Notes: a model not told the origin generated them from the sequence alone. 64,000 nt of DNA from Bdellovibrio sp. (GCA_036676395.1 JAKFCY010000002.1:480001-544000), one strand, 5' to 3'; shown: positions 4,568 through 40,878, numbered from the stretch's first letter. Numbers and translations: made by a program.

Positions 4568-4644
<77 letters not shown>

Positions 4645-10056: not shown

Positions 10057-11940
10057 TTATTGTAAACGTAGTTTCTTACGAAAATACCAAATCAATAAAT
10101 TCTTTGAATAGTTTTGATCTAAGTTTTTTTCTGACAACGCATTAGAACTTTCAGCCACACGTAATGAAATCATAAATGAGATCGTAAGATTTAATAGGCC
10201 AGTTACGACAACTCCAAGTAAGGCCAAATAAATCGCTGGCTCAGAAAAAATTCCAAAGCCTAACGTATAAATGGCTGCAGCAAGTGTTCCCGAGGATAGC
10301 GTAACATGGCGAACATCTATTGGCAGACCTAAAAATTCTCCCATGATTGGAACAATTCCAAGTGTAAAACCAAGAGCCGCATTTCCACAAAGTGCGCCAA
10401 AATTATTTTTTATAAAATTCACCCAGGCTGCTTTTTTTACATGCGACAGAAATGGAAATATTTTTGGTGAGTTCATAATGATTTCATCAAACTTGTAAAC
10501 CTTAAAAAAGTTATCTGCAGCTCCCGTGATGAAAGTTGAAAACCATAAAATATAACCCGTAAGGAAAGCATAAAATGGTGTAAAACTAAAAATAGACATG
10601 GAGGCGATTTGCGCCTGAGCTTTTTCAGCACTCATAAAGCTCTGACTAAATACAATTTGGGATAGGAACGAAATGAGTAATACTGTAGGTATAACAATTC
10701 CTACATTGCCCAGCACAGCCAAGAACTGAGATTTAAATACGGAATCAATTTCAGCTAAAATCTCTTTTTTCGATAATTTATCCCATTGATAATTTAAATG
10801 CGCCGCGATTGCTGCCGGTTGTTTGGTGGCTAAAGTAAAACCTAATAAGTAAATAACGATAAAACTTAAGGCGTAATTTAAACTGTAAATAAAGCCCAGC
10901 AGAAATGGCGCTACATGCAAATACGATGAAAGGGTTTTTAATAAAACAGTGAATCCAGTGATAAAGCCGCCACCACAAGCGCTGGTAAAAAGTTTGGTGA
11001 TCGCCTGACGTGAACGGCCGACATAATAGTCACCTTTTTCTGCGCTGGTGAGCGATACGACCTCAATAAGTTGGCTGCTGTAATGAAAAAATTGAAATTT
11101 AAGAGAATAGAAGTTTTTTCGTTCAATAAGAATAGCGGCCAAATATTTAAAACTAAAACCGTCATAAAGTTTTATTAAATTTTGGAGTCTAATTAGCCGT
11201 GATTTTACTTTTTTAATTCGAAATAGTGAATTTAGCTGGACACCAGTTTCGCGAAAATCATCAACGATTGAATCGATGCCCTTCAAATTGTTTGCAGTTA
11301 ACTGGATAAGTAATTCTGTATCTCTGATCTCTGTGAGGCTAATAACTTGCAGTGTTTTTACAAAGTCTGAATTAAATTTACCAGAGGATGTCATTTTAAA
11401 GACCGATGAATAAATGTCGGACATGTTTTTGTTAGCCAGAATATAAATGGCCCGTATTAAAGACTGTCTGATTTCATTTTTTAAATAAATGATTTTATCA
11501 GGCGGGAAGTAGCTAAGAATTTTGTTAAGTTGAGATTGGTCTACATTTAAAGATTCATCAAAGTGAAAATCCAGCTGTAACGCCTCATCAACTAAATGCG
11601 AAATTTCACAGTCATTCGATGGAACAGTTATAAATTTTTGACAAAACGCCCAAATCACTTCGTGAATAAATGAGTCTGATTCGCCACTGAAGGTATGCAC
11701 CAGCAGCGAATCAAATTGTATGTTCTCAATAAAAACCAGCCATTGCTGGACAAAAACCTCTCGAAACAATGGGTCTTTTTCAAGTAAATTATTGAGGTCA
11801 TCAATTCTTTGATTAAGAGTAGTTTTACCATTGGTGTTTAATAACCAAGTGGCAAACATAATGTACCAATTCCAATCCCACTCTTTGCCCTGATGTGTTC
11901 CGAACGAAAGTAATTCAGGCAGGCTTATTTTTTGAGACAT
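10057..11940 (-). CDS. Polytopic membrane protein of the Gcr / SpecificRecomb family
   Basis: GGGFITGFT, LNYALSF, FTLATKQPA and RHVTLSSG motifs; many TM helices in the C-terminal half. Confidence 0.75.
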   Translation of the reverse strand: MSQKISLPELLSFGTHQGKEWDWNWYIMFATWLLNTNGKTTLNQRIDDLNNLLEKDPLFREVFVQQWLVFIENIQFDSLLVHTFSGESDSFIHEVIWAFCQKFITVPSNDCEISHLVDEALQLDFHFDESLNVDQSQLNKILSYFPPDKIIYLKNEIRQSLIRAIYILANKNMSDIYSSVFKMTSSGKFNSDFVKTLQVISLTEIRDTELLIQLTANNLKGIDSIVDDFRETGVQLNSLFRIKKVKSRLIRLQNLIKLYDGFSFKYLAAILIERKNFYSLKFQFFHYSSQLIEVVSLTSAEKGDYYVGRSRQAITKLFTSACGGGFITGFTVLLKTLSSYLHVAPFLLGFIYSLNYALSFIVIYLLGFTLATKQPAAIAAHLNYQWDKLSKKEILAEIDSVFKSQFLAVLGNVGIVIPTVLLISFLSQIVFSQSFMSAEKAQAQIASMSIFSFTPFYAFLTGYILWFSTFITGAADNFFKVYKFDEIIMNSPKIFPFLSHVKKAAWVNFIKNNFGALCGNAALGFTLGIVPIMGEFLGLPIDVRHVTLSSGTLAAAIYTLGFGIFSEPAIYLALLGVVVTGLLNLTISFMISLRVAESSNALSEKNLDQNYSKNLLIWYFRKKLRLQ

Positions 11941-11966
11941 ACTTATTCCACCATTAAAGCTAAAGA

Positions 11967-12962
11967 CTATAAGTTATTGTTAAGTACCTGCCACATCGGC
12001 TTTGTTGACGGGACCATGTCTTGCATGAAGTACCACCAAAAATATCCTCCGATAAAACGGTCTTGCGAAATATTCATTCTATAATAACGTTCAATCATAT
12101 CTGTTTTCGCGGCTTGTGATTTAATTGTTCCGATTTCGCCAAAACCAATTTTAGAATTTGGAAACATTTGTGCAAGTTTTGCAAATACATCTTCCCAGTT
12201 AGGACGTAAGCCGTTGCAATCATCTTCGTAGTAACTGACAAACACATATTCAAGACCTGACTTCATTCTTGCGGGAACATTTTTACCGGCCCATGTAAAC
12301 ATCTCTTCGCTTGGATACATCCAGCAGGCTTCGTTATAGTATAAAGTGAGGGCTGTGGTTTTACCTTTTGATTTAATAAAATCATAGGCGCTCGTCATTT
12401 TCTGCGCGACTTCAGCGGCGTTACCTAGCCATTCTCCGTTAATTTCATTACCGATTTCCCAGATATCAACATAGGCATTAAGTGCGTTGTAATACTCTTC
12501 TGTGCGGGCTAAGTACTGCGCCGGTGTCACGTTTTTTACGTAGAAAGAATCTAACAATTCACCCATGACATAACTTACGCCGTGAATTTTTTGTGTAGGA
12601 CTTACGTAGTACGAAGCACTCATACCTTCATCAAACACAATTCGTGTGGTGGGTTTTTGTGACAGAGTTTTTAATGAGTTAACCGTATCATTGATATTTG
12701 CGACAGAATCAATGGTTACTCCATACATTTTTGTTGAGGGTGTTGGGTTAGGAGTTGGCGTTTGCGAAACCGGTGGGGTTTGTGAAACTGTAGGTGTTCC
12801 GGAAGTTATAGGTGTTGTTGGATCTTCAGGAGTTGAATCTGCGGTCTGGTTATTTGAACCAGACGAGCTTGTAGAATCTTTTTTGCAAGAAAAAGACGTT
12901 AAGGTTAAGATTAATAATAGAGAAATGACTATATTTTTTTTTGTTTTATTTCTTTTTTGCAT
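11967..12962 (-). CDS. Lipoprotein with TIM-barrel glycoside-hydrolase-like domain
   Basis: Lipobox SFSC; Pro/Thr linker; WEIGNEING and GFGEIG resemble clan GH-A acid/base and nucleophile motifs. Confidence 0.65.
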   Translation of the reverse strand: MQKRNKTKKNIVISLLLILTLTSFSCKKDSTSSSGSNNQTADSTPEDPTTPITSGTPTVSQTPPVSQTPTPNPTPSTKMYGVTIDSVANINDTVNSLKTLSQKPTTRIVFDEGMSASYYVSPTQKIHGVSYVMGELLDSFYVKNVTPAQYLARTEEYYNALNAYVDIWEIGNEINGEWLGNAAEVAQKMTSAYDFIKSKGKTTALTLYYNEACWMYPSEEMFTWAGKNVPARMKSGLEYVFVSYYEDDCNGLRPNWEDVFAKLAQMFPNSKIGFGEIGTIKSQAAKTDMIERYYRMNISQDRFIGGYFWWYFMQDMVPSTKPMWQVLNNNL

Positions 12963-13201
12963 AGTCCTGCGAGAATAAGGAACATGCGTGCTGATTAAAA
13001 CCTTAGCGAGCTAAACAAAGACGAAAACTAATCATTGGTCTGGGAGAAAAAAACTCCCTGAAATTTAATCGGCTCGTTTAAAACGCGTAAAGGTTTATTC
13101 GAAAACATTGCGCTTGAAAAATTTGATAGTGAAAGATTTGATGGGTATCGCGGATATTAATATGCCAAGTGATGTGTCAGGTTTGAATTTAATGGCCACG
13201 A

Positions 13202-28637: not shown

Positions 28638-29249
28638 TTGAAAACTAAGAATCTTTTTCTTATTCGACATGGTGAAACGGATTGGAATCGTGCTAAACGG
28701 TTCCAAGGCCGCACCGATATCCCCTTAAATGATGAGGGGCGTGTACAAGCTCTTGGCTTGTGTTCACGTATGATAGAACTAAAAATTGATTTGGTTGTAT
28801 CTAGTTCTTTGTCGCGGGCTTATGAAACCGCTTTAATCGCGATCCAAGATGTTAAACTTCCGATCCAAAAAGATGATCGTCTGCAAGAAACCAATATTGG
28901 TGAAGCCGAAGGTCTTACGCATGAAGAAATTTCTGAAAAATTTGGCATTGGCCATATCGAACGTTGGCGTTCGTATGAAGAACGTGATTTGGATTTTAGA
29001 TACCCTAGCGGGGAGTCGAAAAGACAGATGATGGTCCGTGTGCGTGAGGCTGTTTTGGACATTGCGCAAAACAATTCACACCAAAATATAGCGGTGTTTG
29101 CTCATGGAATGGTTATGCGCGCTTTAACCTTCGCTTTTCACCAAGGTGTTGCATGGGATTTGTCGCAATTTCACAATGGCTGTATTCACCATTTTGTGTG
29201 GGACGACAAAAGGCCAGAACACATGAAATACATTGGTAAAGTAAATTAA
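28638..29249 (+). CDS. Histidine phosphatase (phosphoglycerate mutase family)
   Basis: IRHGETDWN, SSSLSRAYETA and AHG; TTG start. Confidence 0.92.
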   Translation: MKTKNLFLIRHGETDWNRAKRFQGRTDIPLNDEGRVQALGLCSRMIELKIDLVVSSSLSRAYETALIAIQDVKLPIQKDDRLQETNIGEAEGLTHEEISEKFGIGHIERWRSYEERDLDFRYPSGESKRQMMVRVREAVLDIAQNNSHQNIAVFAHGMVMRALTFAFHQGVAWDLSQFHNGCIHHFVWDDKRPEHMKYIGKVN

Positions 29250-29276: not shown

Positions 29277-31097
29277 ATGCCTGCGTACTTTAAAAAAGTC
29301 TTTCTTAATTCAACCGGATCATTTTTACCAGGACCTGCCGTCAATAATGACGAAATGGATTCTTACATCGGTTCAATCAATACCCAGTCTAACCGAATCA
29401 AGCGCCGTATCTTAGCTGAAAATGGAATTAAATCACGTCACTACGGCATCGATAAAGAAGGCCGTACTATGTTTTCTTCTGCTGATATGGCAATCAAAGC
29501 GATCGAACATACTTTAGAAAATACCGGCGTAAAAATGGATGACGTTCAATTTTTAAGTACTGGCACCGTTGGTGCTGATATGGCCGCACCGGGTTTTGCG
29601 AATCTTGTGCAAGGGCAGTTGCGTGCAGCTCCAATGCAAACGATGAGTTTTCAAGGGATTTGTGCTTCGGGCGTAGCCGCTATGAAAGCTGCAGCTTCAG
29701 TTGTTGAGCTTGGTGAATTTGATAGATCAATGGCGGTAGCGACAGAGTTTCCGTCACGTTTATTTAAAGCATCTCGTTTTCAACAAGTTGAAGAAAACTT
29801 AGATTTTGATTCTCACTTTTTACGTTGGATGTTGTCTGATGGATCAGGTGCAGTGCTCATGGAAAATAAGCCGCGTGAGACGGGTATTTCATTAAAGCTA
29901 GATTGGATTCATTTAAAATCTTTCAGTGGTGATTACCCAACCTGTATGCAAATCGGTGCTCCATGGGGCAGTGGCAATAATAAAAGTTATTTAGATTATT
30001 CGTCATTAGCTGAAGCTGAAAAAGCTGGTTCATTTTTACTTCGCCAGGATATTCGCTTATTACCAAATTTATTTGATGTGGGTATCAGTGAATTTATTGA
30101 TTTAGTTTTAAAAAATGAAATTCAACCAAATGAAGTGGATCATTTCTTATGTCATTACTCTTCAGAGAGATTTTCTGGTGTTGTAAATACTTTGATGGAT
30201 AAAGCGGGTCTTCGCATTCCGCCAGAAAAATGGTTTAGCAACTTAACCAGTAAAGGCAATACAGGAGCTGCTTCAATTTTTATTATGCTTGATGAATTTA
30301 TGAAGACTAAAAAGCCTAAAATTGGTGAAAAGATTCTTTGTTTTATTCCTGAGTCTGGCCGCTTTACTGTTTCATTTATGTTGTTTGAAGTTATGGAAGA
30401 CGGAAAGTCTAAAAAAATTGAAAGACAAAAGCCAGAACGCAAATTAGTGGAAAACTTATTGTTAGAGCTAGGCAGTGTTTGGCACAGCTACCGCTCTAGT
30501 GTATTTCGCACAGAATTTGCGAATAAGATTTTTAATAATAATTTTTCTGTCGAAGATTACCAACAGTGGATGGAAAACTGGATTCCGCAGGTGCGCGAAG
30601 GTAGTATTTGGATGCGCACAGCGATTAAGAATTTATCGAATAAGTTTGAAGGCATTCAAGAATTAATTGAAGAGCATGCCGGCGAAGAGCAATTCGATTT
30701 TAAAGTATTATATGCCGATTACCAAAATTCAGGCGGAAAAAAAGATATTGACGATTTAAAGCGTAACCCAGGTGGCGAGGCTTTAAATAAATATATGTAC
30801 GAGCGCGCTAATGGCGTAAACCCGCTAGGGTTATTAGGTGGTATCTTTATCATTGAAGGAACAGGCCAAAAGATTATTCCGACGATGTTACCGTTCTTGA
30901 AAAAGAGCTTAAATTTGCAAATGAATGTCTTTAAGTTCTTAGAGTATCACGGTGAAAATGACGTGAAACATTTAGAACGTTGGGCAAATGCGGTTGAATT
31001 GGCTTTAACACTAGAGCCAGAAGCTTATCATGACATCTTAGCTACCGCTAAAGAAGTAGCTAGGCTTTACCACGCACAATGGGAGCAAGTACTATGA
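29277..31097 (+). CDS. StlD/DarB-like (FabH-type) ketosynthase fused to a heme-oxygenase-like diiron domain
   Basis: Cys-His-Asn triad (GICASG, CHYSS, GNTGAAS); FLRWMLSDGSGA; PESGRF. C-terminal ~210 aa has EEHAGEE, IIEGTG and YHGENDVKH. Confidence 0.85.
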   Translation: MPAYFKKVFLNSTGSFLPGPAVNNDEMDSYIGSINTQSNRIKRRILAENGIKSRHYGIDKEGRTMFSSADMAIKAIEHTLENTGVKMDDVQFLSTGTVGADMAAPGFANLVQGQLRAAPMQTMSFQGICASGVAAMKAAASVVELGEFDRSMAVATEFPSRLFKASRFQQVEENLDFDSHFLRWMLSDGSGAVLMENKPRETGISLKLDWIHLKSFSGDYPTCMQIGAPWGSGNNKSYLDYSSLAEAEKAGSFLLRQDIRLLPNLFDVGISEFIDLVLKNEIQPNEVDHFLCHYSSERFSGVVNTLMDKAGLRIPPEKWFSNLTSKGNTGAASIFIMLDEFMKTKKPKIGEKILCFIPESGRFTVSFMLFEVMEDGKSKKIERQKPERKLVENLLLELGSVWHSYRSSVFRTEFANKIFNNNFSVEDYQQWMENWIPQVREGSIWMRTAIKNLSNKFEGIQELIEEHAGEEQFDFKVLYADYQNSGGKKDIDDLKRNPGGEALNKYMYERANGVNPLGLLGGIFIIEGTGQKIIPTMLPFLKKSLNLQMNVFKFLEYHGENDVKHLERWANAVELALTLEPEAYHDILATAKEVARLYHAQWEQVL

Positions 31098-31987
31098 TAG
31101 AAACGAATGACATGTTTGCGAATATGCAGCATGACCCGGATGATCCAAGTCCGTGGCAGGCCATGTATTTAGATCAAAGCACGCCACTTCGTCCGTCTTC
31201 AAAAACAATGTGGCTGATCAATTCGAGTTCGAATTCGCGCCAGTTTGTTCTGCCATTCGCAAGATTTATTGCGAAAATTATGATTATTACTTTTCAGATT
31301 ATTAAAGCGTTATCGCCGATTGATTGGCGTGCTTCACGTTTGTTGCATCAATTAATTTATTGGGGCTTAAAATATTTTGTTAAAAAAGAAGCGAACTATC
31401 TTATTTTACGACATTTTCATGCTGGCTCTGAGCTTTTAGGATTTATCGCAGGCAATGTGCCTGGTGCAAATATTCCGATGAATCCTTTAAAGCCTAAAAA
31501 TTTAGAAGCCCTTAAAGATAATTTATTTTTAACCCATGATCTGAATTTATATAATTTTGTGATTAATTTAAATCGCGAACTTAGAGAGAAAAATTTAAAA
31601 ATTAAACCGATTGCTTCACCGAATTTTTCAATGGTCACTGAAGGTGAATTTGATATCGAGATGCCTAAAGAAGGTTTATTTAATTTTATTGATTTAGAAA
31701 CGGCGATTGAAATTTATACTCCGGTGTATCAGTTCTTTTTAACGGATAATGATTTTTGGCGTGCCACAAATTCATTGCAACTAGATGAAACGATCGGCCT
31801 TTATGGTTCGACGATTTTAGGTTCGGATAAACATTTGTTATTGGTAAATAATAAACATCCGTTAGTGTCGCTGATCACCTTAAGTGCTGGATTTCGATTA
31901 GTGCTACATGGTTTATCAACTGAGATGGGGCATTGGCTATTAGTATCGAAAAAACTTGAACAGCGCGAAAAAGAGAAAACGGCTTAG
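31094..31987 (+). CDS. Conserved hypothetical protein (recalled as DUF6999-like)
   Basis: ATGA overlap with the upstream gene; DPSPWQAMYLDQS, NYLILRHFH and NSLQLDE. Family name is from memory. Confidence 0.65.
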   Translation: MIETNDMFANMQHDPDDPSPWQAMYLDQSTPLRPSSKTMWLINSSSNSRQFVLPFARFIAKIMIITFQIIKALSPIDWRASRLLHQLIYWGLKYFVKKEANYLILRHFHAGSELLGFIAGNVPGANIPMNPLKPKNLEALKDNLFLTHDLNLYNFVINLNRELREKNLKIKPIASPNFSMVTEGEFDIEMPKEGLFNFIDLETAIEIYTPVYQFFLTDNDFWRATNSLQLDETIGLYGSTILGSDKHLLLVNNKHPLVSLITLSAGFRLVLHGLSTEMGHWLLVSKKLEQREKEKTA

Positions 31988-31990
31988 ATC

Positions 31991-32701
31991 ATGAATTTAG
32001 AACAATTTGTTTTACAACTGAATCACTGGCAATTTTTTTTAGTCAGCTTTATTGGCTTTTCAGTACTGTATTTTTCATTTTGTTCGATTTCATACTATCT
32101 ATTTTGCGTAAAAAGAATCTGGCCACGAGTTCAGGATAAAGAATTTCGTTCTGGACAAATTAAGACTGAAATTAAGAGATCGTTTTTGTCGATATTTATG
32201 TTTTCGTTACTGGCGATTTGGATGTGTGAGGGATTAAGACGGGGAGTTTACCGCTATGATTTTAATTTTTCGTTAAACACATTTTTAATTGAAGTTGTTG
32301 TGCTTTTTTTCTGGAATGAAATTTACTTTTACAGTTTTCACAGATTGTTTCATTTAAAATCATTATACAAATATCACGTCGATCATCATTATTCGTTCGT
32401 GCCGTCTCCTTTTTCAGCTTACAGTTTTCATTGGAGCGAAGGGGTTATCTTAGGAGCAGTCATGCCAGTGGTCATGCTGTTTCACGACTTTCAGTTTTAC
32501 GCAATTATGGTACTGCCGGCGATGAGTATTTCAATGAACGTGTTAGGGCATTCTAACATCGATTTTTTCCCGAAATCTGGTCAGGGCAGTTTGTTAAGTT
32601 TTTCGAAACGCCATAGTCTGCATCATAAAATTCCCCATTCAAATTTTGGATTTTTCTTACCCTGGTTTGACCAGGTTTTTGGGACCGTGGCCAAAGACTA
32701 A
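31991..32701 (+). CDS. Sterol desaturase / fatty acid hydroxylase family protein
   Basis: His boxes HRLFH, HVDHH and HSLHH; NFG..WFDQVFGT. Confidence 0.9.
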   Translation: MNLEQFVLQLNHWQFFLVSFIGFSVLYFSFCSISYYLFCVKRIWPRVQDKEFRSGQIKTEIKRSFLSIFMFSLLAIWMCEGLRRGVYRYDFNFSLNTFLIEVVVLFFWNEIYFYSFHRLFHLKSLYKYHVDHHYSFVPSPFSAYSFHWSEGVILGAVMPVVMLFHDFQFYAIMVLPAMSISMNVLGHSNIDFFPKSGQGSLLSFSKRHSLHHKIPHSNFGFFLPWFDQVFGTVAKD

Positions 32702-32795
32702 TGTTAGCCATTCTAGGCTCGGTGTAGATAACTTTGACAGTGTATTAGACTACGTAGCTGACGGGGTTGGAACGGCTTTAGCTATATAAAGCTTT

Positions 32796-34610
32796 ATGAA
32801 AAAACAACGCTCATTATCAATCGTATTAGCCGGTACTTTAGCTGTCTCATTTTTAGCTCCATTTTCTGCCAAGGCCCAAGTGGCTGCTGCTGAAGTTCAA
32901 GCGGCTGGCGAAGGTGTTATTACCAGCGAATTATTGGGTATTGAGATTCGGCAGTTTTCGAATCTTTTAGGGGTCGATGCAGAACTGGTTCAAACCGTTT
33001 TTAAAACTATTTCAATTGATACAAAATTAAAATTAAAAGAAATGGTCGCGATCTGGGCGTCACAAGGTTTATTGTTCAATCCAAGCTCACAATTAGGAAT
33101 TGTTAAGACTGGTGATAAATCTGAAATCTTTGATGTAGCTGAAAAGGATCTTTCACAAGTTGAAAATGACATTTTAGATTTATTGATCTCGCTTCATGGT
33201 GATAGTAAATTGGTGCCGTTTATTTCTTCTTTGATCGAAATCTTAAAACAAGATCCAAAGTATGGTCCAACGGTAAGTGCAGTAACTCCAGATCAAAAAT
33301 TAATGATCTTATCAATGTTAGATCAAACTATTTCTTCGACGGGTGCTTTGCGCAAATTTTCGCCTCAGACCTGGACGCAACTATCTGAGCAGTTGGAAAC
33401 TAAACTAAATCGCTTTGAGAAAAATCAAAAATCACAAACCAGACTTTCAAATCCGGTATTCTTAACAGAATTGTATGATGCAGCTAATTCAAAGTATTAC
33501 GCCACTCAGAACTCTAAATTATTAATCGATGGCCCAGCTTCTTTTGCTTTACGTGATCAAAAAATGAGTGAAGCTAAGCAAACGATCAATATGCTTACTT
33601 GGGCTGTGATCGATGATAAAACAGGTCAAGAGTTAGCTGATTTACTTATTGCTAAAGCTAAGAAAAATGTAAAAGTTCGTCTTATCGTAGATGGTCAGGT
33701 AAGTTATAAACCGCACTACAATCGTGAAGTTAAACGTATGGAAGAAAACGGCGTGCAGGTTATTCGCTGGATGAATCCAAAAGCTTCATTTATGGGTCAG
33801 CACCGTAAAATGTTAGTTATTGATGATAAGTTTGCAGTCATGGGCGGAATGAATCCAGGCGATACTTACAGCCATAAAGCCGGTGCAGGTAAAGACTTAT
33901 GGCGTGACACCGATGTGGCATTCGAAGGAACAGCTGCAGAGCAAGCGCAACGTTTATTCATGAAAATCTGGAATAAACAAATTTCTGACCGCAAGCTACC
34001 ACTTAAACAAATCACAATTGTAAACTATTTTACAACGGGAACTAATGACGGAAAAGCGATGCTTGTAGAGCATCAACCCATGTCTGCAGGTGATCAGCAT
34101 AATATTTTGTTAACGATAATGAAATCAATCCGTGGTGCGGAAAAAACTGTGGATATCGAGAATGCATATGTTATTACGTTTCCGTCATTAACATATGAAA
34201 TTAAAGAAGCCGTTGAGCGTGGTGTTAAAGTTAGAATTTTAACGAATTCAACAAACAGTGTGGATGAAAAAGTTGTGGCACTTCCAATCGTACGCAGTGC
34301 TAAAAAGCTTTTAGATGTAGGTGCAGAAGTTTACTTAAAAACAGGCAGCACATTACATTCTAAGTTTATGATTGTAGATCAACGTTTATTTTTAATCGGA
34401 AGTTATAACTTACACCCGAGATCTGAAAAGATGGAAGGTGAGACGATTGTTGTCTTTGATAATACAAAACTTGCATTAGAAGCAACAGCTGCTTTTGAAA
34501 ATGATATCCAGGCTGATAAAGCCATTAAAATGGATCCAGCTCAGGAAGTTATTATTCCGGTAACGGGTGAAACACTTTTACCATTGCGTATGTTTTACGA
34601 TCAGTTGTAA
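32796..34610 (+). CDS. Secreted phospholipase D / cardiolipin-synthase-like protein
   Basis: Signal peptide ending AKA; two HKD motifs (HRKMLVIDD, HSKFMIVD). Confidence 0.9.
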   Translation: MKKQRSLSIVLAGTLAVSFLAPFSAKAQVAAAEVQAAGEGVITSELLGIEIRQFSNLLGVDAELVQTVFKTISIDTKLKLKEMVAIWASQGLLFNPSSQLGIVKTGDKSEIFDVAEKDLSQVENDILDLLISLHGDSKLVPFISSLIEILKQDPKYGPTVSAVTPDQKLMILSMLDQTISSTGALRKFSPQTWTQLSEQLETKLNRFEKNQKSQTRLSNPVFLTELYDAANSKYYATQNSKLLIDGPASFALRDQKMSEAKQTINMLTWAVIDDKTGQELADLLIAKAKKNVKVRLIVDGQVSYKPHYNREVKRMEENGVQVIRWMNPKASFMGQHRKMLVIDDKFAVMGGMNPGDTYSHKAGAGKDLWRDTDVAFEGTAAEQAQRLFMKIWNKQISDRKLPLKQITIVNYFTTGTNDGKAMLVEHQPMSAGDQHNILLTIMKSIRGAEKTVDIENAYVITFPSLTYEIKEAVERGVKVRILTNSTNSVDEKVVALPIVRSAKKLLDVGAEVYLKTGSTLHSKFMIVDQRLFLIGSYNLHPRSEKMEGETIVVFDNTKLALEATAAFENDIQADKAIKMDPAQEVIIPVTGETLLPLRMFYDQL

Positions 34611-34626
34611 AAAAAAGGACATTGCT

Positions 34627-35358
34627 GTGAATGATGTTTTAATTTTTTTAGCCATTTTAGCTTTCGGAACTTTTAAATACGGTACTCTGATGGGTATTCC
34701 GTACTACATTTTTTGGAAAGTAAAACCAGCATGGTTAAATAATTTTAAAAAAATTCAAGTGCAAGAGCGGGCAAAACCGCAAGTCGCCTTAGAGATGAAA
34801 TATTCAAGCTATACACTAGTTATTCAGGCGATCTTTTTTTTCGGCATTTATAAATTGAACCAGCTTGGCTTTGTGCAGATCGTGGCTGAGCAGCCGTTAT
34901 GGAAAGATTTAGTCGCGCTGGGCATTTACGTCTTGATCTATGATCCATTCTTCTATGTGCTTCATCACATCATGCATAAGAATAAGTGGTTATATCGCAA
35001 TATTCACGTTGTGCATCACCGCTCACTTAATCCAACACCTTGGGCGACTTATTCGTTTCATCCCATTGAAGCAGCTGCAAACTTGTTATATTTTATTCCG
35101 TTTTTCTTTTTAACGAGTGTCAGTGTGCCAATGCTTTTGTTTATTTTGATCGTCACTGACTCGGCAAATTTAGCCGGCCATTTGGGATATGAAGTTTTCT
35201 CAGAGAAAGTGCAAAACAGCTGGTGGGGACGTTGGATCACGACGCCGACTCATCATAATATTCATCATCAGGTATCTAATTCGAATTTTGGCTTGTATTT
35301 CAATGGCTGGGATCTTTGGTTCAAGACCTTAAATGCAAAAGATAAGCGTAAAACTTAG
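34627..35358 (+). CDS. Sterol desaturase / fatty acid hydroxylase family protein
   Basis: His boxes HHIMH, HVVHH and HNIHH; GTG start at 34627 after aagga RBS. Confidence 0.9.
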   Translation: MNDVLIFLAILAFGTFKYGTLMGIPYYIFWKVKPAWLNNFKKIQVQERAKPQVALEMKYSSYTLVIQAIFFFGIYKLNQLGFVQIVAEQPLWKDLVALGIYVLIYDPFFYVLHHIMHKNKWLYRNIHVVHHRSLNPTPWATYSFHPIEAAANLLYFIPFFFLTSVSVPMLLFILIVTDSANLAGHLGYEVFSEKVQNSWWGRWITTPTHHNIHHQVSNSNFGLYFNGWDLWFKTLNAKDKRKT

Positions 35359-35501
35359 TTAATATAAGTGATTAGGGTTTGGAAGCCCAACGTTGCTTTG
35401 GCCATCACTGTGTCTTGCTCTGCGGCAAGCTGCTTCACTAAGTAAACTACAGTAAATGCGCCAACGTAAAATAAGAATAGTCTTTTTCTAAATTCAATCA
35501 T
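35355..35501 (-). CDS. Possible 48-aa membrane peptide (not in ORF track)
   Basis: MIEFRKRLFLFYVGAFTVVYLVKQLAAEQDTVMAKATLGFQTLITYIN; basic N-terminus plus hydrophobic helix; no clear RBS. Confidence 0.4.
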   Translation of the reverse strand: MIEFRKRLFLFYVGAFTVVYLVKQLAAEQDTVMAKATLGFQTLITYIN

Positions 35502-35604
35502 GGAGCGAAGATACCGCATTTTTGCCTATCGGAGAGAAAAATCTGAGGCTTGGTGAAAAGAATAAAAGGTTGTCAAAAATCTAGACAGGGCAGACAATAC
35601 GTCT

Positions 35605-36282
35605 ATGTCATCAGTCGTCGAAATCAAGAATATATCAAAGAGTTATAAATTAGGGGAAACCCATGTGGACGCCATCAAGGATTTGTCTTTAGTTGTGACT
35701 AAAGGGGAGTTTACGGCGCTTATCGGGGCATCGGGATCGGGCAAAACTACGCTTTTAAATTTAATTGGGTGTTTAGACAGTGTCGATCGCGGTGAGATTT
35801 TAATTGATGGCATGAACGTGAAGCGGCTTAACGAAAACCAAAAAAGCCAGCTGCGTAATGAAAAAATTGGTTTTATTTTTCAATCGTTTAATTTAATCCC
35901 TGTGTTAAATATTTATGAAAATGTTGAATTGCCATTAACCGTGCGTAAAGACATTCAAGCTGCAGAACGTAAAGCAAAAGTTGAAGCGGCTTTAAAAGAT
36001 GTAGGCCTTTTAGAATTTGCGCATCATCGTCCAGACCAACTATCAGGTGGACAACGTCAGCGCGTGGCCATAGCCAGAGCCTTGGTGACATCACCGGCCC
36101 TGATCTTAGCGGATGAGCCAACGGCAAACTTAGATTCAAAAACTGCCAATTTAATTATCGATTTAATGTTAGAATTAAATAAAACAAAACATGTGACTTT
36201 TTTCTTTTGCACCCATGATGAAAAATTAATGAGCCGTGTTCAAAAAATTGTAAAAATTAAAGATGGTCAGATCGAAGCATGA
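35605..36282 (+). CDS. ABC transporter ATP-binding protein (LolD/MacB-type)
   Basis: GASGSGKTT, LSGGQRQRVAIARAL and ADEPTANLD. Confidence 0.96.
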   Translation: MSSVVEIKNISKSYKLGETHVDAIKDLSLVVTKGEFTALIGASGSGKTTLLNLIGCLDSVDRGEILIDGMNVKRLNENQKSQLRNEKIGFIFQSFNLIPVLNIYENVELPLTVRKDIQAAERKAKVEAALKDVGLLEFAHHRPDQLSGGQRQRVAIARALVTSPALILADEPTANLDSKTANLIIDLMLELNKTKHVTFFFCTHDEKLMSRVQKIVKIKDGQIEA

Positions 36283-37598
36283 TTTGGAAATTTGCTTACA
36301 GAAATTTATTGCGCAATAAACGCCGATCATTATCGACCGGCGTAGCTATTTGCGTAGGCTTTGTAGGATTAAACTTACTAGGTGCTTATATTTACCGCGC
36401 TAAGATGGCCTTAGATACAACATCAATTTATTCGGCACAAAAAGGTCATGTCAGTATTTATAAAAAAGATTCTATTGAACAGTATCAAATTAAACCTAAA
36501 AAATATATTTTTAGCACCGAAGAGCAAAAGAAAATTGATCAGGTCTTAACAGAATTCACTTCTGAAGTTGAATATGTCGGAAAACAAATTTCTGTTCCGG
36601 GATTACTTTCAAATGGAACTAAATCTCATCCCGTAGTTATTTATGGTTTTGATCCTGTAGCCTTTAAAAAATCTTTAACTCAGCCAGCGCTATTAGAATG
36701 GGCTAAAGATTGGGTACTGCCTTCACAGCTTGAAGATGCCGACTTATTTTTAAAAAATCCTGAGACACTTTCGATCACGCCAAAAATTGCCGAGCTCTTA
36801 TCTTTTAAATATCCGTTAAAGAGCAATGAACCCGTGCAAATTGCAGCGCGCACTTTAGAAGGGGATTTAAACGCGATCAATGCAGATCTTGGTGCGGAAC
36901 ACACAACGGGCATGCAATTTCTTGAAGATACTATTGTATTGATTCCAATAGCTAAGGTTCAGGAGTTGTTGGCCACGGATGCGGTGGAAACAATTTCAGT
37001 TTATTTAAAACACGATGTTTCGGTGGATCGATTTATAAGCGAATTGAAAAGTAAGACAACGGCATTAGGCTTCGATACTGATATTTATAGATTTGATGAC
37101 CCTATCATTAATGCCATTCATTCGGGATCGATGGGTTTTTTATACGTTATGGGCGGATTTTTTCTATTTTTAATCTGCACGGCGGTGAGCCTTACGATTA
37201 TTAATTCTCTGACGATGGGGATTATTGAACGTACACGCGAAATTGGAACTTTGCGGGCCGTAGGATTTAAAAGTTTAGATGTCGTACAATTGTTTGTGCG
37301 CGAAAGTGTTTTGCTATCAGTGATCAGCATGTTTTTTGGAGTTTTGATTTCGTTTTTAGTTTCAAGTGCGATTAATGCTGCAAATATTCGGTTTTTTCCG
37401 CCTGGCGCCAGCACCATGATTCAATTTGTCTTAAAGTGGAATTTATATATTGCCGGGTTTGTTTTTATTTTGCTTTTTGTTATTGCCACAGTTTCATCAT
37501 TTTTTGTGATTAAGAGTAAATTGCGCACTAAATTAATTGCCTTACTTAATGACACATCAACTTTCGATGATGATAGCGAAGAAGAGGAATCACCATGA
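36279..37598 (+). CDS. ABC permease, FtsX/LolCE-like
   Basis: AYRNLLRNKRRS; ERTREIGTLRAVG; 1+3 TM topology. Confidence 0.92.
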   Translation: MIWKFAYRNLLRNKRRSLSTGVAICVGFVGLNLLGAYIYRAKMALDTTSIYSAQKGHVSIYKKDSIEQYQIKPKKYIFSTEEQKKIDQVLTEFTSEVEYVGKQISVPGLLSNGTKSHPVVIYGFDPVAFKKSLTQPALLEWAKDWVLPSQLEDADLFLKNPETLSITPKIAELLSFKYPLKSNEPVQIAARTLEGDLNAINADLGAEHTTGMQFLEDTIVLIPIAKVQELLATDAVETISVYLKHDVSVDRFISELKSKTTALGFDTDIYRFDDPIINAIHSGSMGFLYVMGGFFLFLICTAVSLTIINSLTMGIIERTREIGTLRAVGFKSLDVVQLFVRESVLLSVISMFFGVLISFLVSSAINAANIRFFPPGASTMIQFVLKWNLYIAGFVFILLFVIATVSSFFVIKSKLRTKLIALLNDTSTFDDDSEEEESP

Positions 37599-38317
37599 AA
37601 TTATTAATCTTATTATTAGCCATCCCGTTTTATGCTAATGCTGATTTAGCGACGGACTTGTTAAAAGCTTCAGATCGCGCCCGTGGCAGTGTAAAAGATG
37701 GCGTTCAGTGGAATGCTGTGATTGAAACCCAAGAAAACGGCGAAAGCAGTACACGTGAATTTAATATTAAAGCCAAAGGCGACGATGCTTATGTGGAATC
37801 GACAAAGCCTGCAAAAAACAAAGGCGAGATTTATATTTTTAATGATCGTAACATGTGGTTTTTTAAACCCTCACTTAAAAAGCCAATTTCAATTTCAGCC
37901 CGCCAAAAGCTAACAGGGCAAGCGGCTAACGGAGATATCGCTTCGACTCACTATGCACGCGATTACGCTGCTGTTATTGAAAAAACTGAGCTGTTAAATG
38001 GCGATAAAATGCACGTCTTATTATTAACAGCGAAATCTAAAAGTTTAACCTATGATAAAATCAGATACTGGATCAGTGATAAAACTAAATTAGCCATGAA
38101 GGCCGAATTTTTAACTTTGCAAGGTAAGCCCTTTAAAGTGGGACTCTTAAAGTACGGTAACACTTTAACTGCTGGCGGAGAAACCTTTCCGTTTATCAGT
38201 GAGCTAGTGATTGTGGATGCGAAGTTTGGCAATAACAAGAGCACGATCAATTACAAAACTCCTAAAGTGGTTCAGCTATCAAATTCGATTTTTAATGTGA
38301 ATAACCTAACGAGATAA
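37595..38317 (+). CDS. LolA-like outer-membrane lipoprotein-sorting family protein
   Basis: Signal peptide; NMWFFKPSLKKPISIS..QKLTG...GDIA; YDKIRYWI. Confidence 0.85.
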   Translation: MKLLILLLAIPFYANADLATDLLKASDRARGSVKDGVQWNAVIETQENGESSTREFNIKAKGDDAYVESTKPAKNKGEIYIFNDRNMWFFKPSLKKPISISARQKLTGQAANGDIASTHYARDYAAVIEKTELLNGDKMHVLLLTAKSKSLTYDKIRYWISDKTKLAMKAEFLTLQGKPFKVGLLKYGNTLTAGGETFPFISELVIVDAKFGNNKSTINYKTPKVVQLSNSIFNVNNLTR

Positions 38318-38321
38318 TTTA

Positions 38322-39635
38322 ATGATTCTAAAGATCGCTCTTCGCAACACTATAAAAAACTGGCGCCACTCGATTTCGGCGTTATTAAGCTTATCGGCTT
38401 CGTTTGTGTCGCTTGTGCTATTTGATGGTTATATGGACGATGTTAAAGCCATGTATATTGATAATTTTACTCACCGTCAGATGTTGGGTGATATTATTAT
38501 TGAACACAAAGACCAGTATTCAAAAGAAGGCATTAGTTCTCCGTGGGAATTTTGGATCAGCAAAGAAGATCAAATTTACATTCAGCAAAAAGTAACTGCT
38601 AAGCCGATTAAGGCTGAAATCGTTATTCGCAATTTAAATTTTCAAGGAATGATCACTAACGGCATTCAATCGCAGATTTTATTAGGACGTGGTTATGATC
38701 CTCTTGAAGGTGAAAAAATGCGCGGTAAAAATTGGTCATGGAATGTGACCTATGGAACACCACTGGATCGCCAAGAAAGTGCGTTCACGGGAGCTTTAGG
38801 ACAAGGTTTGGCCAGAAAGCTTGCCTGCACATGGACAAAAGATCCTAACGTTATGACTTTTTACGGTGGTTATGAACAAGTTGCTAAACCATTTGAGTGT
38901 CTGACCAAAGATTTACAAATTTCATCAACAACGGTGGATGGTCAATTAAATGCAATTGATATTACAGCGGTTGCGCTAATGGATGCGGGTTATAAGGACG
39001 TTGATGATCGCTATATTCAGACATCTCTTGAAGCTGCGCAAACTTTAATGAACACTGATAAGGTGAGTTTTATTTCAATTTCAACGGCAGGTCGGTCTGT
39101 GGATGAAGCGATTGATTACCTGAACACTGATGTTTTTAAAGATAAAAAGTATTTACAGGCCCAGCGTTGGCAAAATCACCGTCTAGGTGAGATGTACACG
39201 AAGACGATGGATTTTTTATCGATCTTTAGAAATTTTGTGGTCGTTGTCATTGTGTTGGTTTCAACATTATCGGTGTTAAACACGATGGTGAAGCTTGTGA
39301 AAGAACGCACACGTGAAATCGGAACTATGCGAAGCATTGGTTTTTTACCACAGCAAGTGGTGAAGATGTTCTTTCTGGAAAGCGTATTTTTATCAGTAAT
39401 GGGAACAGCTGTCGGAGCAGTGATAGCGCTAGGGCTTACGTTCATTTTTAATTCAGTTAAAATAATGTATAAAGCAGGGCTTCTGTCAGAGCCAGTAGCA
39501 TTTCGAATCGCATTTTATCCCGATGCTTATATAGCTGCTTTTATTCTATTAGTATCTGTAGGAACAGTGGCAACTTATTTTGCTACAAGACAAATTATTA
39601 AAAGTAAGATTATTGATAACTTAACGTATGTGTAA
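38322..39635 (+). CDS. ABC permease, FtsX/LolCE-like
   Basis: ALRNTIKNWRHS; ERTREIGTMRSIG. Confidence 0.92.
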   Translation: MILKIALRNTIKNWRHSISALLSLSASFVSLVLFDGYMDDVKAMYIDNFTHRQMLGDIIIEHKDQYSKEGISSPWEFWISKEDQIYIQQKVTAKPIKAEIVIRNLNFQGMITNGIQSQILLGRGYDPLEGEKMRGKNWSWNVTYGTPLDRQESAFTGALGQGLARKLACTWTKDPNVMTFYGGYEQVAKPFECLTKDLQISSTTVDGQLNAIDITAVALMDAGYKDVDDRYIQTSLEAAQTLMNTDKVSFISISTAGRSVDEAIDYLNTDVFKDKKYLQAQRWQNHRLGEMYTKTMDFLSIFRNFVVVVIVLVSTLSVLNTMVKLVKERTREIGTMRSIGFLPQQVVKMFFLESVFLSVMGTAVGAVIALGLTFIFNSVKIMYKAGLLSEPVAFRIAFYPDAYIAAFILLVSVGTVATYFATRQIIKSKIIDNLTYV

Positions 39636-40878
39636 ATGGTTAGTCTTCTTATCATTACAGCTTCCATTAATAGCAAGTGCGCAAAATTTTGAGTTTGCGT
39701 TCAGTTATGAAGCGTATTTATTTGGTGAGCAGCGTGATTATGCAGATTCAGTTTTAAATCTGGGAAATGAAGTTTTAAATGTGCCTGAAACAGCAGGTTT
39801 TTTAGATCAGCGCGCTGAATTTAAGTGGTTAATTAATGATGCAAAGATTATTCTTCGTCCAAGAATAGTTTCGTACCAGCAAAATTATAAAACTGAACAG
39901 ACGTTAAAGGAAGAATCGCAAAGTGACACGGAGATTAATTTAGCCGATGCATTTTACGAACAGTATATCACTGACCGTATTTTTACCACTGTAGGTTTGC
40001 AGGTTTACCAATGGGGACCAGCTGAAGTTTTAAATCCGTCAAATCCATTTTTTCATTTTAACACTAATCAGCGAAGTCTTGTGTACAAAGAAAAAGGCAA
40101 AGCACTGCTGCGATTAAATTGGAATGCCAAAGTCGATAACAACTTTGTTTTTATGGTAGAACCAGTTTCAAATAACGAAACCCACTGGATTGCAGAAGAA
40201 AAATTTAAACCGCAGGTTGCAGCAAAATTTGAAACGGCATGGACAGGTACGAGAAATTTCTTAGGCTTTGTGGCTGGAATTCCTGATAATGCTGATTTTT
40301 TTATCGGCGAATATTTTCAATATGAATTTACCGAAGGTTTTAGTATTTACGCTGACGCTAAACACGGTGTGAATACCTTTTTCTATGAGCCACAAACGCA
40401 AGGTTTGTTTCAACGAATGTTGCCGAGCAATCAAGACGGAACAGTGAGTACGTTAGCGGTAGGTGGACTTCGTTATGAAGATACTTTTGATGCACGTTTA
40501 GAATATATTTACAATTCAGCAGGATACGATCAAAAAACTTTTGATAGCGCATTGATCGGAAGTTCTCAGCTTTCGCCTTTTTTAGTTGATAACATTAAAC
40601 GCTTTCAATTCTCTGGATTGGAACTGTTTAGCCAAAACTACGTTTATTTTTCGGTTAGAAAAACGGATCCCTTTGATATTAAAGATTTGAGTTTATTTTT
40701 TAGATCTTTGACATCATTAATGGATAGTTCGGGTGTTGAACAATTTGAATTCGATAAATCAGTTTTAGACTGGGCAAATATCTTTGGCCAATACTCTGCT
40801 TATCGCGGGGAGCAAGATAGCGAATTTAAATTAGTTGATGATTGGAAAGTCTCTGCTGGTGTAAAAGTTATTTATTAG
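39628..40878 (+). CDS. Putative outer-membrane beta-barrel protein
   Basis: Signal peptide; GLQVYQWG...NP motif; alternating aromatic strands; terminal aromatic residue (VKVIY). Confidence 0.7.
   Translation: MCKWLVFLSLQLPLIASAQNFEFAFSYEAYLFGEQRDYADSVLNLGNEVLNVPETAGFLDQRAEFKWLINDAKIILRPRIVSYQQNYKTEQTLKEESQSDTEINLADAFYEQYITDRIFTTVGLQVYQWGPAEVLNPSNPFFHFNTNQRSLVYKEKGKALLRLNWNAKVDNNFVFMVEPVSNNETHWIAEEKFKPQVAAKFETAWTGTRNFLGFVAGIPDNADFFIGEYFQYEFTEGFSIYADAKHGVNTFFYEPQTQGLFQRMLPSNQDGTVSTLAVGGLRYEDTFDARLEYIYNSAGYDQKTFDSALIGSSQLSPFLVDNIKRFQFSGLELFSQNYVYFSVRKTDPFDIKDLSLFFRSLTSLMDSSGVEQFEFDKSVLDWANIFGQYSAYRGEQDSEFKLVDDWKVSAGVKVIY

Follow-up and report, generated by a model that had tools for sequence, protein, structure and literature searches.

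The window analysed here is a stretch of 64,000 nt from Bdellovibrio sp. (GCA_036676395.1, JAKFCY010000002.1:480001-544000), one strand read 5' to 3', and our subject is a run of ten genes within it, at positions 29277–40878. A preliminary description of this run had presented it as a gene cluster for a specialised lipid with an envelope export set of its own. The genome of origin (G000) is 3.4 Mb in size and 99.3% complete. Pfam and NCBIfam searches bore out the ten open reading frames (ORFs), all on the + strand, with the coordinates and named domains that had been assigned to them beforehand.

Layout of the locus

The run consists of two modules and one inserted gene. Module A (29277–32701 and 34627–35358) comprises a ketosynthase fused to a heme-oxygenase-like dimetal oxidase (KS-HDO), a DUF6999 protein and two enzymes of the FA_hydroxylase superfamily (FAH1 and FAH2). 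A gene of the phospholipase D superfamily (PLD) lies between FAH1 and FAH2. Module B (35605–40878) is made up of an ABC ATPase, an FtsX-type permease, a LolA_like protein, another FtsX-type permease and a beta-barrel candidate. Neighbouring genes overlap or are at most 19 nt apart within the KS-HDO/DUF6999/FAH1 segment and from the ABC gene to the barrel gene; the DUF6999 gene overlaps that of KS-HDO by 19 nt. Larger gaps are found ahead of the PLD gene (94 nt) and between the two halves of the run (246 nt).

A ketosynthase fused to a dimetal oxidase domain

The first gene (29277–31097, + strand) encodes KS-HDO, in which a StlD/DarB-type KAS III domain (the KS domain, aa 1–372) is joined to a heme-oxygenase-like dimetal domain (aa ~395–606). 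The KS domain is homologous over its full length to StlD, with the Cys, His and Asn positions kept: residues 7–371 matched the StlD structure 5gk0 with an E value of 1.2e-74 and 255 bits, whereas FabH-type structures gave 44 bits or less. Four residues, C129, E157, H293 and N328, were invariant in 10/10 diverse aligned fusions. We take C129, H293 and N328 to play the catalytic Cys, His and Asn roles. E157 aligned with a Glu in the StlD sequence, and H293 with a position occupied by His in chain 5gk0 but by Ala in 5gk2. The nearest named loci belong to Pseudobdellovibrio and 'Bdellovibrio sp. qaytius', with 91–93% identity in this first gene.

The curated cut-offs of the family were not reached, neither for NF005293 (StlD/DarB; 367.8 bits, cut-off 450) nor for NF053539 (DarB; 312.1 bits, cut-off 550). 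Stand-alone DarB proteins from two other genomes of Bdellovibrionales, G043 and G042, scored 544.6 and 505.6 bits on NF005293. Because the KS domain falls below a cut-off that stand-alone DarB passes, it is, judged by these scores, a distinct branch of the StlD/DarB family.

The C-terminal domain of KS-HDO matched PF14518 with 31.7 bits (cut-off 28.9). Its profile (A3, 20 sequences) found a single solved relative, the HO-like protein 3dde (E 1.7e-5), which has no assigned function. Six residues, H467, E471, E527, H558, D562 and H565, were invariant in 20/20 sequences and aligned to the H/E/E/H/D/H of 3dde; they would be the metal ligands, in a 3-His/3-carboxylate (3H/3C) set. The PF14518 match and this set of residues place the domain among the heme-oxygenase-like dimetal oxidases (HDOs). 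The 3H/3C motif is described as the hallmark of HDOs, which carry out decarboxylation and C–C cleavage on carboxylate substrates; the enzyme on which the family was founded, UndA, decarboxylates fatty acids (PMC13108848). Whereas the family assignment and the 3H/3C pattern are shared with HDOs such as UndA, CADD, SznF and BesC, the domain differs from them in its fusion to a ketosynthase and in having 3dde as its sole solved sequence relative. In the main text of the 2026 mini-review of HDOs (PMC13108848), the words 'ketosynthase', 'fused' and 'fusion' are absent. A protein atlas query with the dimetal domain returned its own family alone.

The Dar partners

DarB homologs are described as releasing a cyclohexanedione acid, the partner aromatase DarA being needed for the resorcinol, and this aromatase as the only conserved neighbour of DarB homologs (PMC13748660). 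Among the ten genes, no acyl carrier protein (ACP), AMP-ligase or Dar partner was recognised by Pfam or NCBIfam. The preliminary description was right to report no ACP, DarA-type aromatase or ligase in the run, and its picture of a StlD/DarB-type biosynthetic core with oxidative tailoring, lacking the usual Dar partners, is supported.

The canonical arrangement is found in G042 and G043. Both carry a stand-alone DarB gene followed by DarG and DarH and preceded by a conserved gene of 301–316 aa; an ACP-like gene lies near the cluster of G043 (L087, G043:C67:61000-73000), and ABC transporter genes follow that of G042 (L088, G042:C72:26500-38500). The 301–316-aa gene presumably sits in the DarA position of published clusters, and from this position we infer that the 301-aa gene of G043 is DarA. 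The 301-aa protein matched in both control genomes, G042 and G043, but G000, G012 and G025 gave no homolog. The same result was obtained for DarG in these three genomes and two controls. DarH was not found in G000, in a search that had no control genome.

KS-HDO thus shares with the DarAB(C)/StlCD pathways a condensing enzyme that is a clear StlD homolog with conserved Cys/His/Asn positions, and like them it probably draws on fatty-acid-derived thioesters. It differs from them in being fused to a dimetal oxidase domain, in scoring under the family cut-offs and in its obligate partners, which are DUF6999 and His-box membrane enzymes. The partner aromatase (DarA/StlC) of a Dar/Stl pathway is missing: no gene in the DarA/StlC position, DarG, DarH or ACP accompanies KS-HDO, whereas G042 and G043 carry the canonical DarB-DarG-DarH-ACP cluster.

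DUF6999 and the FA_hydroxylase enzymes

The second gene (31079–31987, + strand) encodes the DUF6999 protein (PF22523, 398 bits), which has one hydrophobic helix at aa 56–81. In an alignment of 29 members, 59 columns were invariant, many of them His, Asp, Glu or Asn. The structure model is all-helical (pLDDT 87.6, pTM 0.87). Fold searches returned no usable match: the best Foldseek hit had an E value of 1.4, VIA-align against 48,161 chains reached at best Z 4.2, on helical bundles and G-protein-coupled receptors, and the profile gave 0 matches among PDB sequences. In the protein atlas, the only leads were sulfotransferases at chance level (0.81). A HMMER pass over 1.84 billion representatives gave 436 cluster representatives, and the 150 listed at E <=3e-24 were taken as the family. 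Among the eight longest members, which were scanned for fusions, seven had no second domain and one had a partial GATase_2 match that is probably a chimera, so that no informative fusion was obtained. A complex prediction for KS-HDO and DUF6999 scored 0.00; made without controls, it has no bearing either way on binding. A family match above the cut-off was also present in the control genome of Caulobacter vibrioides, a model organism that may therefore carry at least the DUF6999 gene.

FAH1 (31991–32701, + strand; PF04116, 75.5 bits) and FAH2 (+ strand; PF04116, 90.5 bits) both pass the PF04116 cut-off of 31 and carry the HX3H, HX2HH and HX2HH boxes that assign them to the superfamily of membrane His-box diiron enzymes. 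In FAH1 the boxes read HRLFH, HVDHH and HSLHH, and three transmembrane-like segments are present. For FAH2, the ORF finder placed the start at 34567. From the sequence context, translation more likely begins at a GTG at 34627, preceded by AAGGA, which gives the coordinates 34627–35358; the protein is then 243 aa long, equal in length to its counterpart in the related locus L005, and the overlap with the PLD gene is gone.

Module A is a widely conserved cassette

To compare the locus across bacteria, one genome per species was scanned. An estimated 740 stretches matched; 602 were scanned, 538 encoded a relative, and 80 loci were kept. The window proteins were used as queries against the six-frame ORFs of these 80 loci, and neighbouring ORFs within 6 kb were clustered. 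The loci span Bdellovibrionota, Beta- and Gammaproteobacteria, Acidobacteriota (Vicinamibacteria) and Myxococcota (Polyangiales).

Module A is a compact, widely conserved cassette. DUF6999 lies directly after KS-HDO in 77 of the 80 loci. Two of the exceptions (L016 and L059) stop at a contig edge, and in the third (L032, Iodobacter arcticus, 11863–13200) no DUF6999 ORF was found after the fusion, masked bases not being the cause. An FA_hydroxylase is present in 61/80 loci. Immediately upstream of KS-HDO, 51/80 loci carry a gene that belongs to a single ORF cluster, identified by Pfam as FA_desaturase for two members. Proteobacteria usually have the genes in the order hydroxylase, desaturase, fusion, DUF6999, and Bdellovibrionales in the order fusion, DUF6999, then one or two hydroxylases. 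In L005 (11773–12731) the DUF6999 match is split over two overlapping frames, which may reflect a frameshift or an assembly error.

Module B is separable from module A

Module B is a self-contained unit confined to the window's genus. In 0/70 loci outside the window's genus-level group were module B genes found near the core, and over all 80 loci, 64 had none within 10 kb of it. Among 36 other genomes of the genus, the fusion was present in 11 and the barrel in 16; G024, whose ketosynthase stands alone, is 34% identical and contains an internal stop, was not counted as a fusion carrier. In 24 genomes of the same order outside the genus, the barrel was found in 0/24 and the fusion in 1/24. The five genus genomes with barrel and no fusion are G026, which is 99% complete, and four less complete ones; the DUF6999 family was not found in these five. 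Conversely, G037 has module A without module B.

G000, G016, G018 and G036 are the only genomes with fusion and barrel close together, at a distance of about 10 kb. In G012 and G025 the two modules are on different contigs (265–822 kb), and the 19-kb regions inspected in these genomes contain an intact fusion-DUF6999-FAH1-FAH2 set in one place and an intact ATPase-FtsX-LolA_like-FtsX-barrel set in another. Module B was intact in three other genomic contexts, whose neighbouring genes (two-component genes, peptidases, hydrolases) share no family. Two further arrangements were seen. L005 has the window's gene order without the PLD gene, and its two halves are separated by a minus-strand gene of 348 aa; in L006 and L009, module B is upstream of the core and two of its genes are inverted.

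The genes had been expected to occur together in other genomes. This was true of the four-gene core, which is widespread, and PLD-family genes recur beside it, but only the window's nearest relatives were found to have the full ten-gene set (G016, G018, G036 and loci L002–L004 and L010, two lists that may overlap as genomes). The claim that the transport genes are a dedicated export set is not supported in that form: G012 and G025 have module B apart from the core, G026 has it with no core at all, and it was not found beside the core in any of the 70 outside loci.

The PLD gene

The PLD gene (32796–34610, + strand) encodes a protein with a signal-like N-terminus, a PLDc_2 match of 133 bits and two HKD (HxKxxxxD) motifs, at aa 336 and 521. 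With both motifs present it belongs to the PLD superfamily. It stayed below the level of a cardiolipin synthase equivalog, with 148.8 bits on TIGR04265 (cut-off 290) and 106.9 bits on ClsB (cut-off 281). The N-terminal ~230 aa matched no Pfam or NCBIfam model. The protein is thus similar to cardiolipin synthases (ClsA/B/C) and phospholipases D in its two intact HKD motifs and in its best NCBIfam matches, which are cardiolipin synthases, whereas scores far under the cut-offs, a cleavable-looking signal and the unmatched N-terminal region set it apart. The enzyme appears to be periplasmic.

Orthologs with 63–97% identity were found only in G016, G018, G036 and loci L002–L004 and L010. L005 lacks a PLD gene at this place, FAH2 following directly on FAH1. 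By this comparison of sequences, the PLD gene is a clade-specific insert between FAH1 and FAH2.

Neighbouring-ORF clustering detected a PLD-family ORF in 17/80 loci. In Variovorax, such a gene lies directly after DUF6999 (L046, L068), after a 740-nt gap (L040) or immediately upstream of the core (L050), and in a metagenome-assembled genome of Methylotenera (L080) it lies between KS-HDO and DUF6999. These proteins are distant from the window PLD (38–95 bits); since they are only distantly related to it, separate recruitments beside the core are indicated. The order in L080 (8557–18638) is MFS transporter, KS-HDO, PLD, DUF6999, a sulfatase-family gene (LtaS/EptA-like) and a Kdo/WaaP-family kinase, neighbours which hint at envelope lipid modification.

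Module B is a Lol-like system

The ABC ATPase (35605–36282, + strand; PF00005, 125 bits) is of the LolD/MacB type, with Walker A and LSGGQ motifs, and scored 239.6 bits on the LolD model TIGR02211 (cut-off 307.75). It is followed by FtsX-type permease 1 (36279–37598, + strand; PF02687, 51.9 bits), in which a first transmembrane segment, a periplasmic domain of ~245 aa and three further segments succeed one another. The candidate periplasmic carrier LolA_like (37595–38317, + strand; PF17131, 101.7 bits) comes next, between the two permeases and not after them as had been described. It has a signal peptide, with the N-terminus MKLLILLLAIPFYANA, and matches PF17131 rather than the LolA family PF03548. 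FtsX-type permease 2 (38322–39635, + strand; PF02687, 67.9 bits) completes the transporter. On the lolCE model TIGR02212, permeases 1 and 2 scored 31.5 and 54.1 bits (cut-off 362.45). None of the equivalog levels for LolD, LolC/E and LolA was thus attained by module B. A canonical LolA (PF03548) is encoded elsewhere in the genome (G000:C3:300286), as are better lolCE matches, the best with 257.9 bits. Because of these other copies, module B is, by sequence, a paralogous, accessory Lol-like system. Another LolA_like domain (142 bits) was found at G000:C3:320791-321336, inside an open frame of 1022 aa which may be a transporter fusion.

The last gene (39628–40878, + strand) encodes a candidate beta-barrel of 416 aa, with a signal peptide and the C-terminus ...KVIY, without a Pfam match. 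A model built from ten homologs is a closed antiparallel beta-barrel of moderate pLDDT (69.8), with about 20 strands (it may also be termed 18-strand-type, the strand number not being settled). Foldseek matched it to ChiP, OccK7 and AlgE with E values of 1.6e-10 to 4e-10 and TM scores of 0.5–0.56; at least 500 matches were counted, 312 of them at E<=0.001, and the top matches listed were all outer-membrane barrels. Signal peptide, modelled closed barrel and aromatic C-terminus together predict an outer-membrane beta-barrel. The family counts 100 proteins at E<=1e-5 in an index of 5.8 billion proteins, all unnamed or 'hypothetical' and devoid of Pfam domains, and the sources that name taxa place them almost wholly in Bdellovibrionales.

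Module B resembles LolCDE-LolA-LolB in its set of an ATPase, a LolA-fold carrier and two FtsX-type permeases whose periplasmic domains are large. It differs in missing all Lol equivalog cut-offs widely, in coexisting with a separate LolA and better LolCE-like genes, and in its outer-membrane partner, a porin/AlgE-like barrel that is neither LolB nor an Omp85 protein. Its transport logic is also that of the Borrelia genes BBJ23-29, described as a computationally predicted set of MacB-like, LolA-like and barrel proteins with which ATP would drive a non-polar ligand towards the outer membrane (PMC13078400). Measured against the Dar/Stl, HDO and Lol systems, the locus shows homology each time but not equivalence.

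The boundary between the modules

The largest gap in the run (35359–35604, 246 nt) holds a small ORF on the minus strand (35355–35519), convergent with FAH2 and divergent from the ABC gene. It encodes 48 aa from MIEF..., and at most 54 aa, with a single hydrophobic helix. The 48-aa core had equal length in 5/5 relatives, with mostly conservative changes, and no Pfam match was found. Because this ORF is conserved, the run is not strictly the ten uninterrupted co-directional genes that had been described, although all ten do lie on the + strand.

Just upstream of the ABC start, at 35570–35598 (+ strand), a promoter-like TTGTCA-17-GACAAT site was observed. Its first part, GGTTGTCAAA, was identical in all five aligned relatives, and the remainder, AATCTAGACA, nearly so. 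The TGTC...GACA within it forms an inverted repeat that may be an operator. A scan for consensus promoters gave no signal over chance (32 promoter-like sites, 38.1 expected). Terminator-like sites numbered 20, versus 11.5 in shuffled sequences (sd 3.2), none of them placed so as to settle the operon structure. Because a conserved minus-strand ORF and a conserved promoter-like site mark the boundary, we read modules A and B, on sequence grounds, as two transcription units.

A composite locus

We consider, with a probability of about 0.6, that the locus is a composite of separable units: a conserved lipid cassette (module A), a lineage-specific PLD accessory and an accessory Lol-like module (B). 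By analogy with StlD/DarB chemistry, module A most likely makes an oxidised lipid of the cyclohexanedione or resorcinol type. Fatty-acid metabolism would supply the KS domain with two thioesters, one 3-oxoacyl and one 2-enoyl, for condensation to a dialkyl-cyclohexanedione that bears a carboxylate. The fused dimetal domain could then bind the carboxylate of this cyclohexanedione and oxidise it with O2; our guess is that an UndA-like oxidative decarboxylation aromatises the ring, replacing the missing DarA/StlC aromatase. FAH1 and FAH2 in the membrane, and DUF6999 associated with it, would hydroxylate or desaturate the ring or the chains, tasks that in Proteobacteria would fall to the hydroxylase and the FA_desaturase. 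In the window's clade, the putative periplasmic PLD-type enzyme may add or remove a phosphodiester head group. In module B, the ATPase and the heterodimeric FtsX pair would extract a hydrophobic cargo from the inner membrane and pass it to the LolA_like carrier and on to the porin-like barrel. The cargo could be what module A produces, a tentative proposal which we hold to be somewhat doubtful.

Several points weigh against the composite reading or parts of it. Product, substrate and activity are deduced from sequence for all genes of the run. The replacement of the aromatase is a guess drawn solely from the UndA analogy, and for DUF6999 neither a fold match nor a relative with a known function was detected. 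Because the KS domain scores below both the StlD/DarB and the DarB cut-offs, while the stand-alone DarB proteins of G042 and G043 pass the former, its chemistry may differ from that of StlD/DarB. Relatives of the PLD with 40% identity occur in G010 and G022, both of which lack modules A and B. The independence of the modules is challenged by the distribution of the barrel, present in 11/11 fusion-bearing genomes of the genus versus 5/25 without the fusion, an association that may be overstated as related genomes are not independent samples. It is also challenged by the adjacency of A and B in two arrangements, that of the window and L005 versus that of L006 and L009 with part of B inverted. 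The occurrence of a PLD gene near the core in five Achromobacter loci was considered as support for a link and rejected as coincidental synteny: in the one locus checked (L063), it lies ~5 kb from the core, behind antiporter, aspartyl-tRNA synthetase-type and endonuclease/exonuclease/phosphatase-family genes, and we read it as a housekeeping cardiolipin synthase.

The same distribution bears on two opposite views of how the units belong together. If the run were a single dedicated pathway, its first five genes would make a lipid and its last five would exist to deliver the product to the outer membrane. Adjacent and co-directional genes in the window, in G016, G018 and G036, and in L002–L004, L005 and L010 agree with this, as do the adjacent, rearranged modules of L006 and L009 and the barrel in every fusion-bearing genome of the genus. 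Aryl-polyene clusters include LolA-like genes. Such clusters have also been published as pairing lipid synthesis with outer-membrane localisation. However, the modules are unlinked in G012 and G025, B exists without A in G026 and four less complete genomes, and A without B in G037 and, over a 10-kb range, in 64 of the 80 loci; within the run itself, the conserved antisense ORF, the 246-nt gap and the conserved TTGTCA...GACAAT site ahead of the ABC gene separate the halves, as the 348-aa minus-strand gene does in L005. We regard a single pathway as quite unlikely. At the other extreme, the PLD and module B might have nothing to do with A, the former being a secreted phospholipase of a predator and the latter serving envelope or lipoprotein sorting, both brought to this position by accidents of rearrangement. 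The restriction of the PLD ortholog to the closest relatives, its 40%-identical homologs in genomes without A and B, the location of module B elsewhere beside two-component genes, peptidases or hydrolases, and the small barrel family, almost wholly of Bdellovibrionales where sources name the taxon, all favour such a view. It accounts poorly for the independent recruitment of PLD-family genes beside the core in Variovorax and Methylotenera, for the co-occurrence of A and B in 11/11 fusion-bearing genomes of the genus and for the tight fit of the PLD gene, which is 94 nt from FAH1 and 16 nt from FAH2. An unrelated origin of these neighbours is rather unlikely in our view, if a serious contender.

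The composite reading leaves room for another chemistry in module A. Its KAS III could perform a different condensation or acyl transfer, giving for example a 3-oxo acid, which the dimetal domain would turn by decarboxylation or cleavage into an olefin, ketone or hydroxy lipid for the His-box enzymes to modify. The KS scores under both curated Dar/Stl cut-offs and the absence of DarA, DarG, DarH and ACP are in line with this, and so are the partners FA_hydroxylase and FA_desaturase, typical modifiers of acyl chains, and the decarboxylation and C–C cleavage of carboxylates described for HDOs (PMC13108848). Yet StlD is by far the closest solved relative, with 255 bits over a whole-domain alignment versus 44 or less for FabH-type structures, and E157 is invariant and aligned to a Glu of StlD. 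We therefore consider a product outside the cyclohexanedione/resorcinol type unlikely. More far-reaching, and in our estimation improbable, is that module A makes a new phenolic lipid of the resorcinol or quinol type, aromatised by the KS-fused dimetal oxidase in place of DarA, with DUF6999 as a metalloenzyme of unseen fold that acts in a further step, a periplasmic PLD-type transferase linking a phosphatidyl group to the lipid in this lineage and the Lol-like machine bringing the product to the outer membrane. Should this be true, a LolA-fold pathway would be seen for the first time to serve only a non-protein lipid cargo.

Spread of the cassette and its use

By estimate, several hundred bacterial species carry the core cassette, among them members of the well-studied genera Bordetella, Achromobacter, Variovorax, Lysobacter, Collimonas and Cellvibrio. 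Despite this spread, a search of titles and abstract beginnings, with supplements and subscription-only papers outside its range, found no paper on the cassette, on DUF6999 or on a characterised KS-HDO fusion. Identification of the product would give the function of DUF6999, a well-predicted fold without a solved relative, would test a new task for an HDO, acting directly on a ketosynthase product, and would possibly reveal an unrecognised oxygen-dependent membrane lipid. What the window locus itself newly offers are the PLD and Lol-like neighbours, their separability from the core and the antisense small ORF at the boundary. Close relatives that have the core with or without the PLD gene, and with or without an adjacent transport set, constitute natural experiments in which Lol-like lipid export is testable.

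Flanking genes and other features of the window

By Pfam and NCBIfam, the run is flanked upstream by Tex and histidine phosphatase genes and downstream by a convergent HAD hydrolase gene and topA. The His_Phos_1 gene (28638–29249, + strand) ends 27 nt ahead of KS-HDO, and its place behind Tex is kept only in the closest relatives (L001–L005 and L010); in the window's clade it may share a transcript with the core. RNA genes lie at the beginning of the window, at positions 1–2103 and 4568–4641: one for 23S rRNA, of which the 3' part is present, one for 5S rRNA and one for a tRNA.

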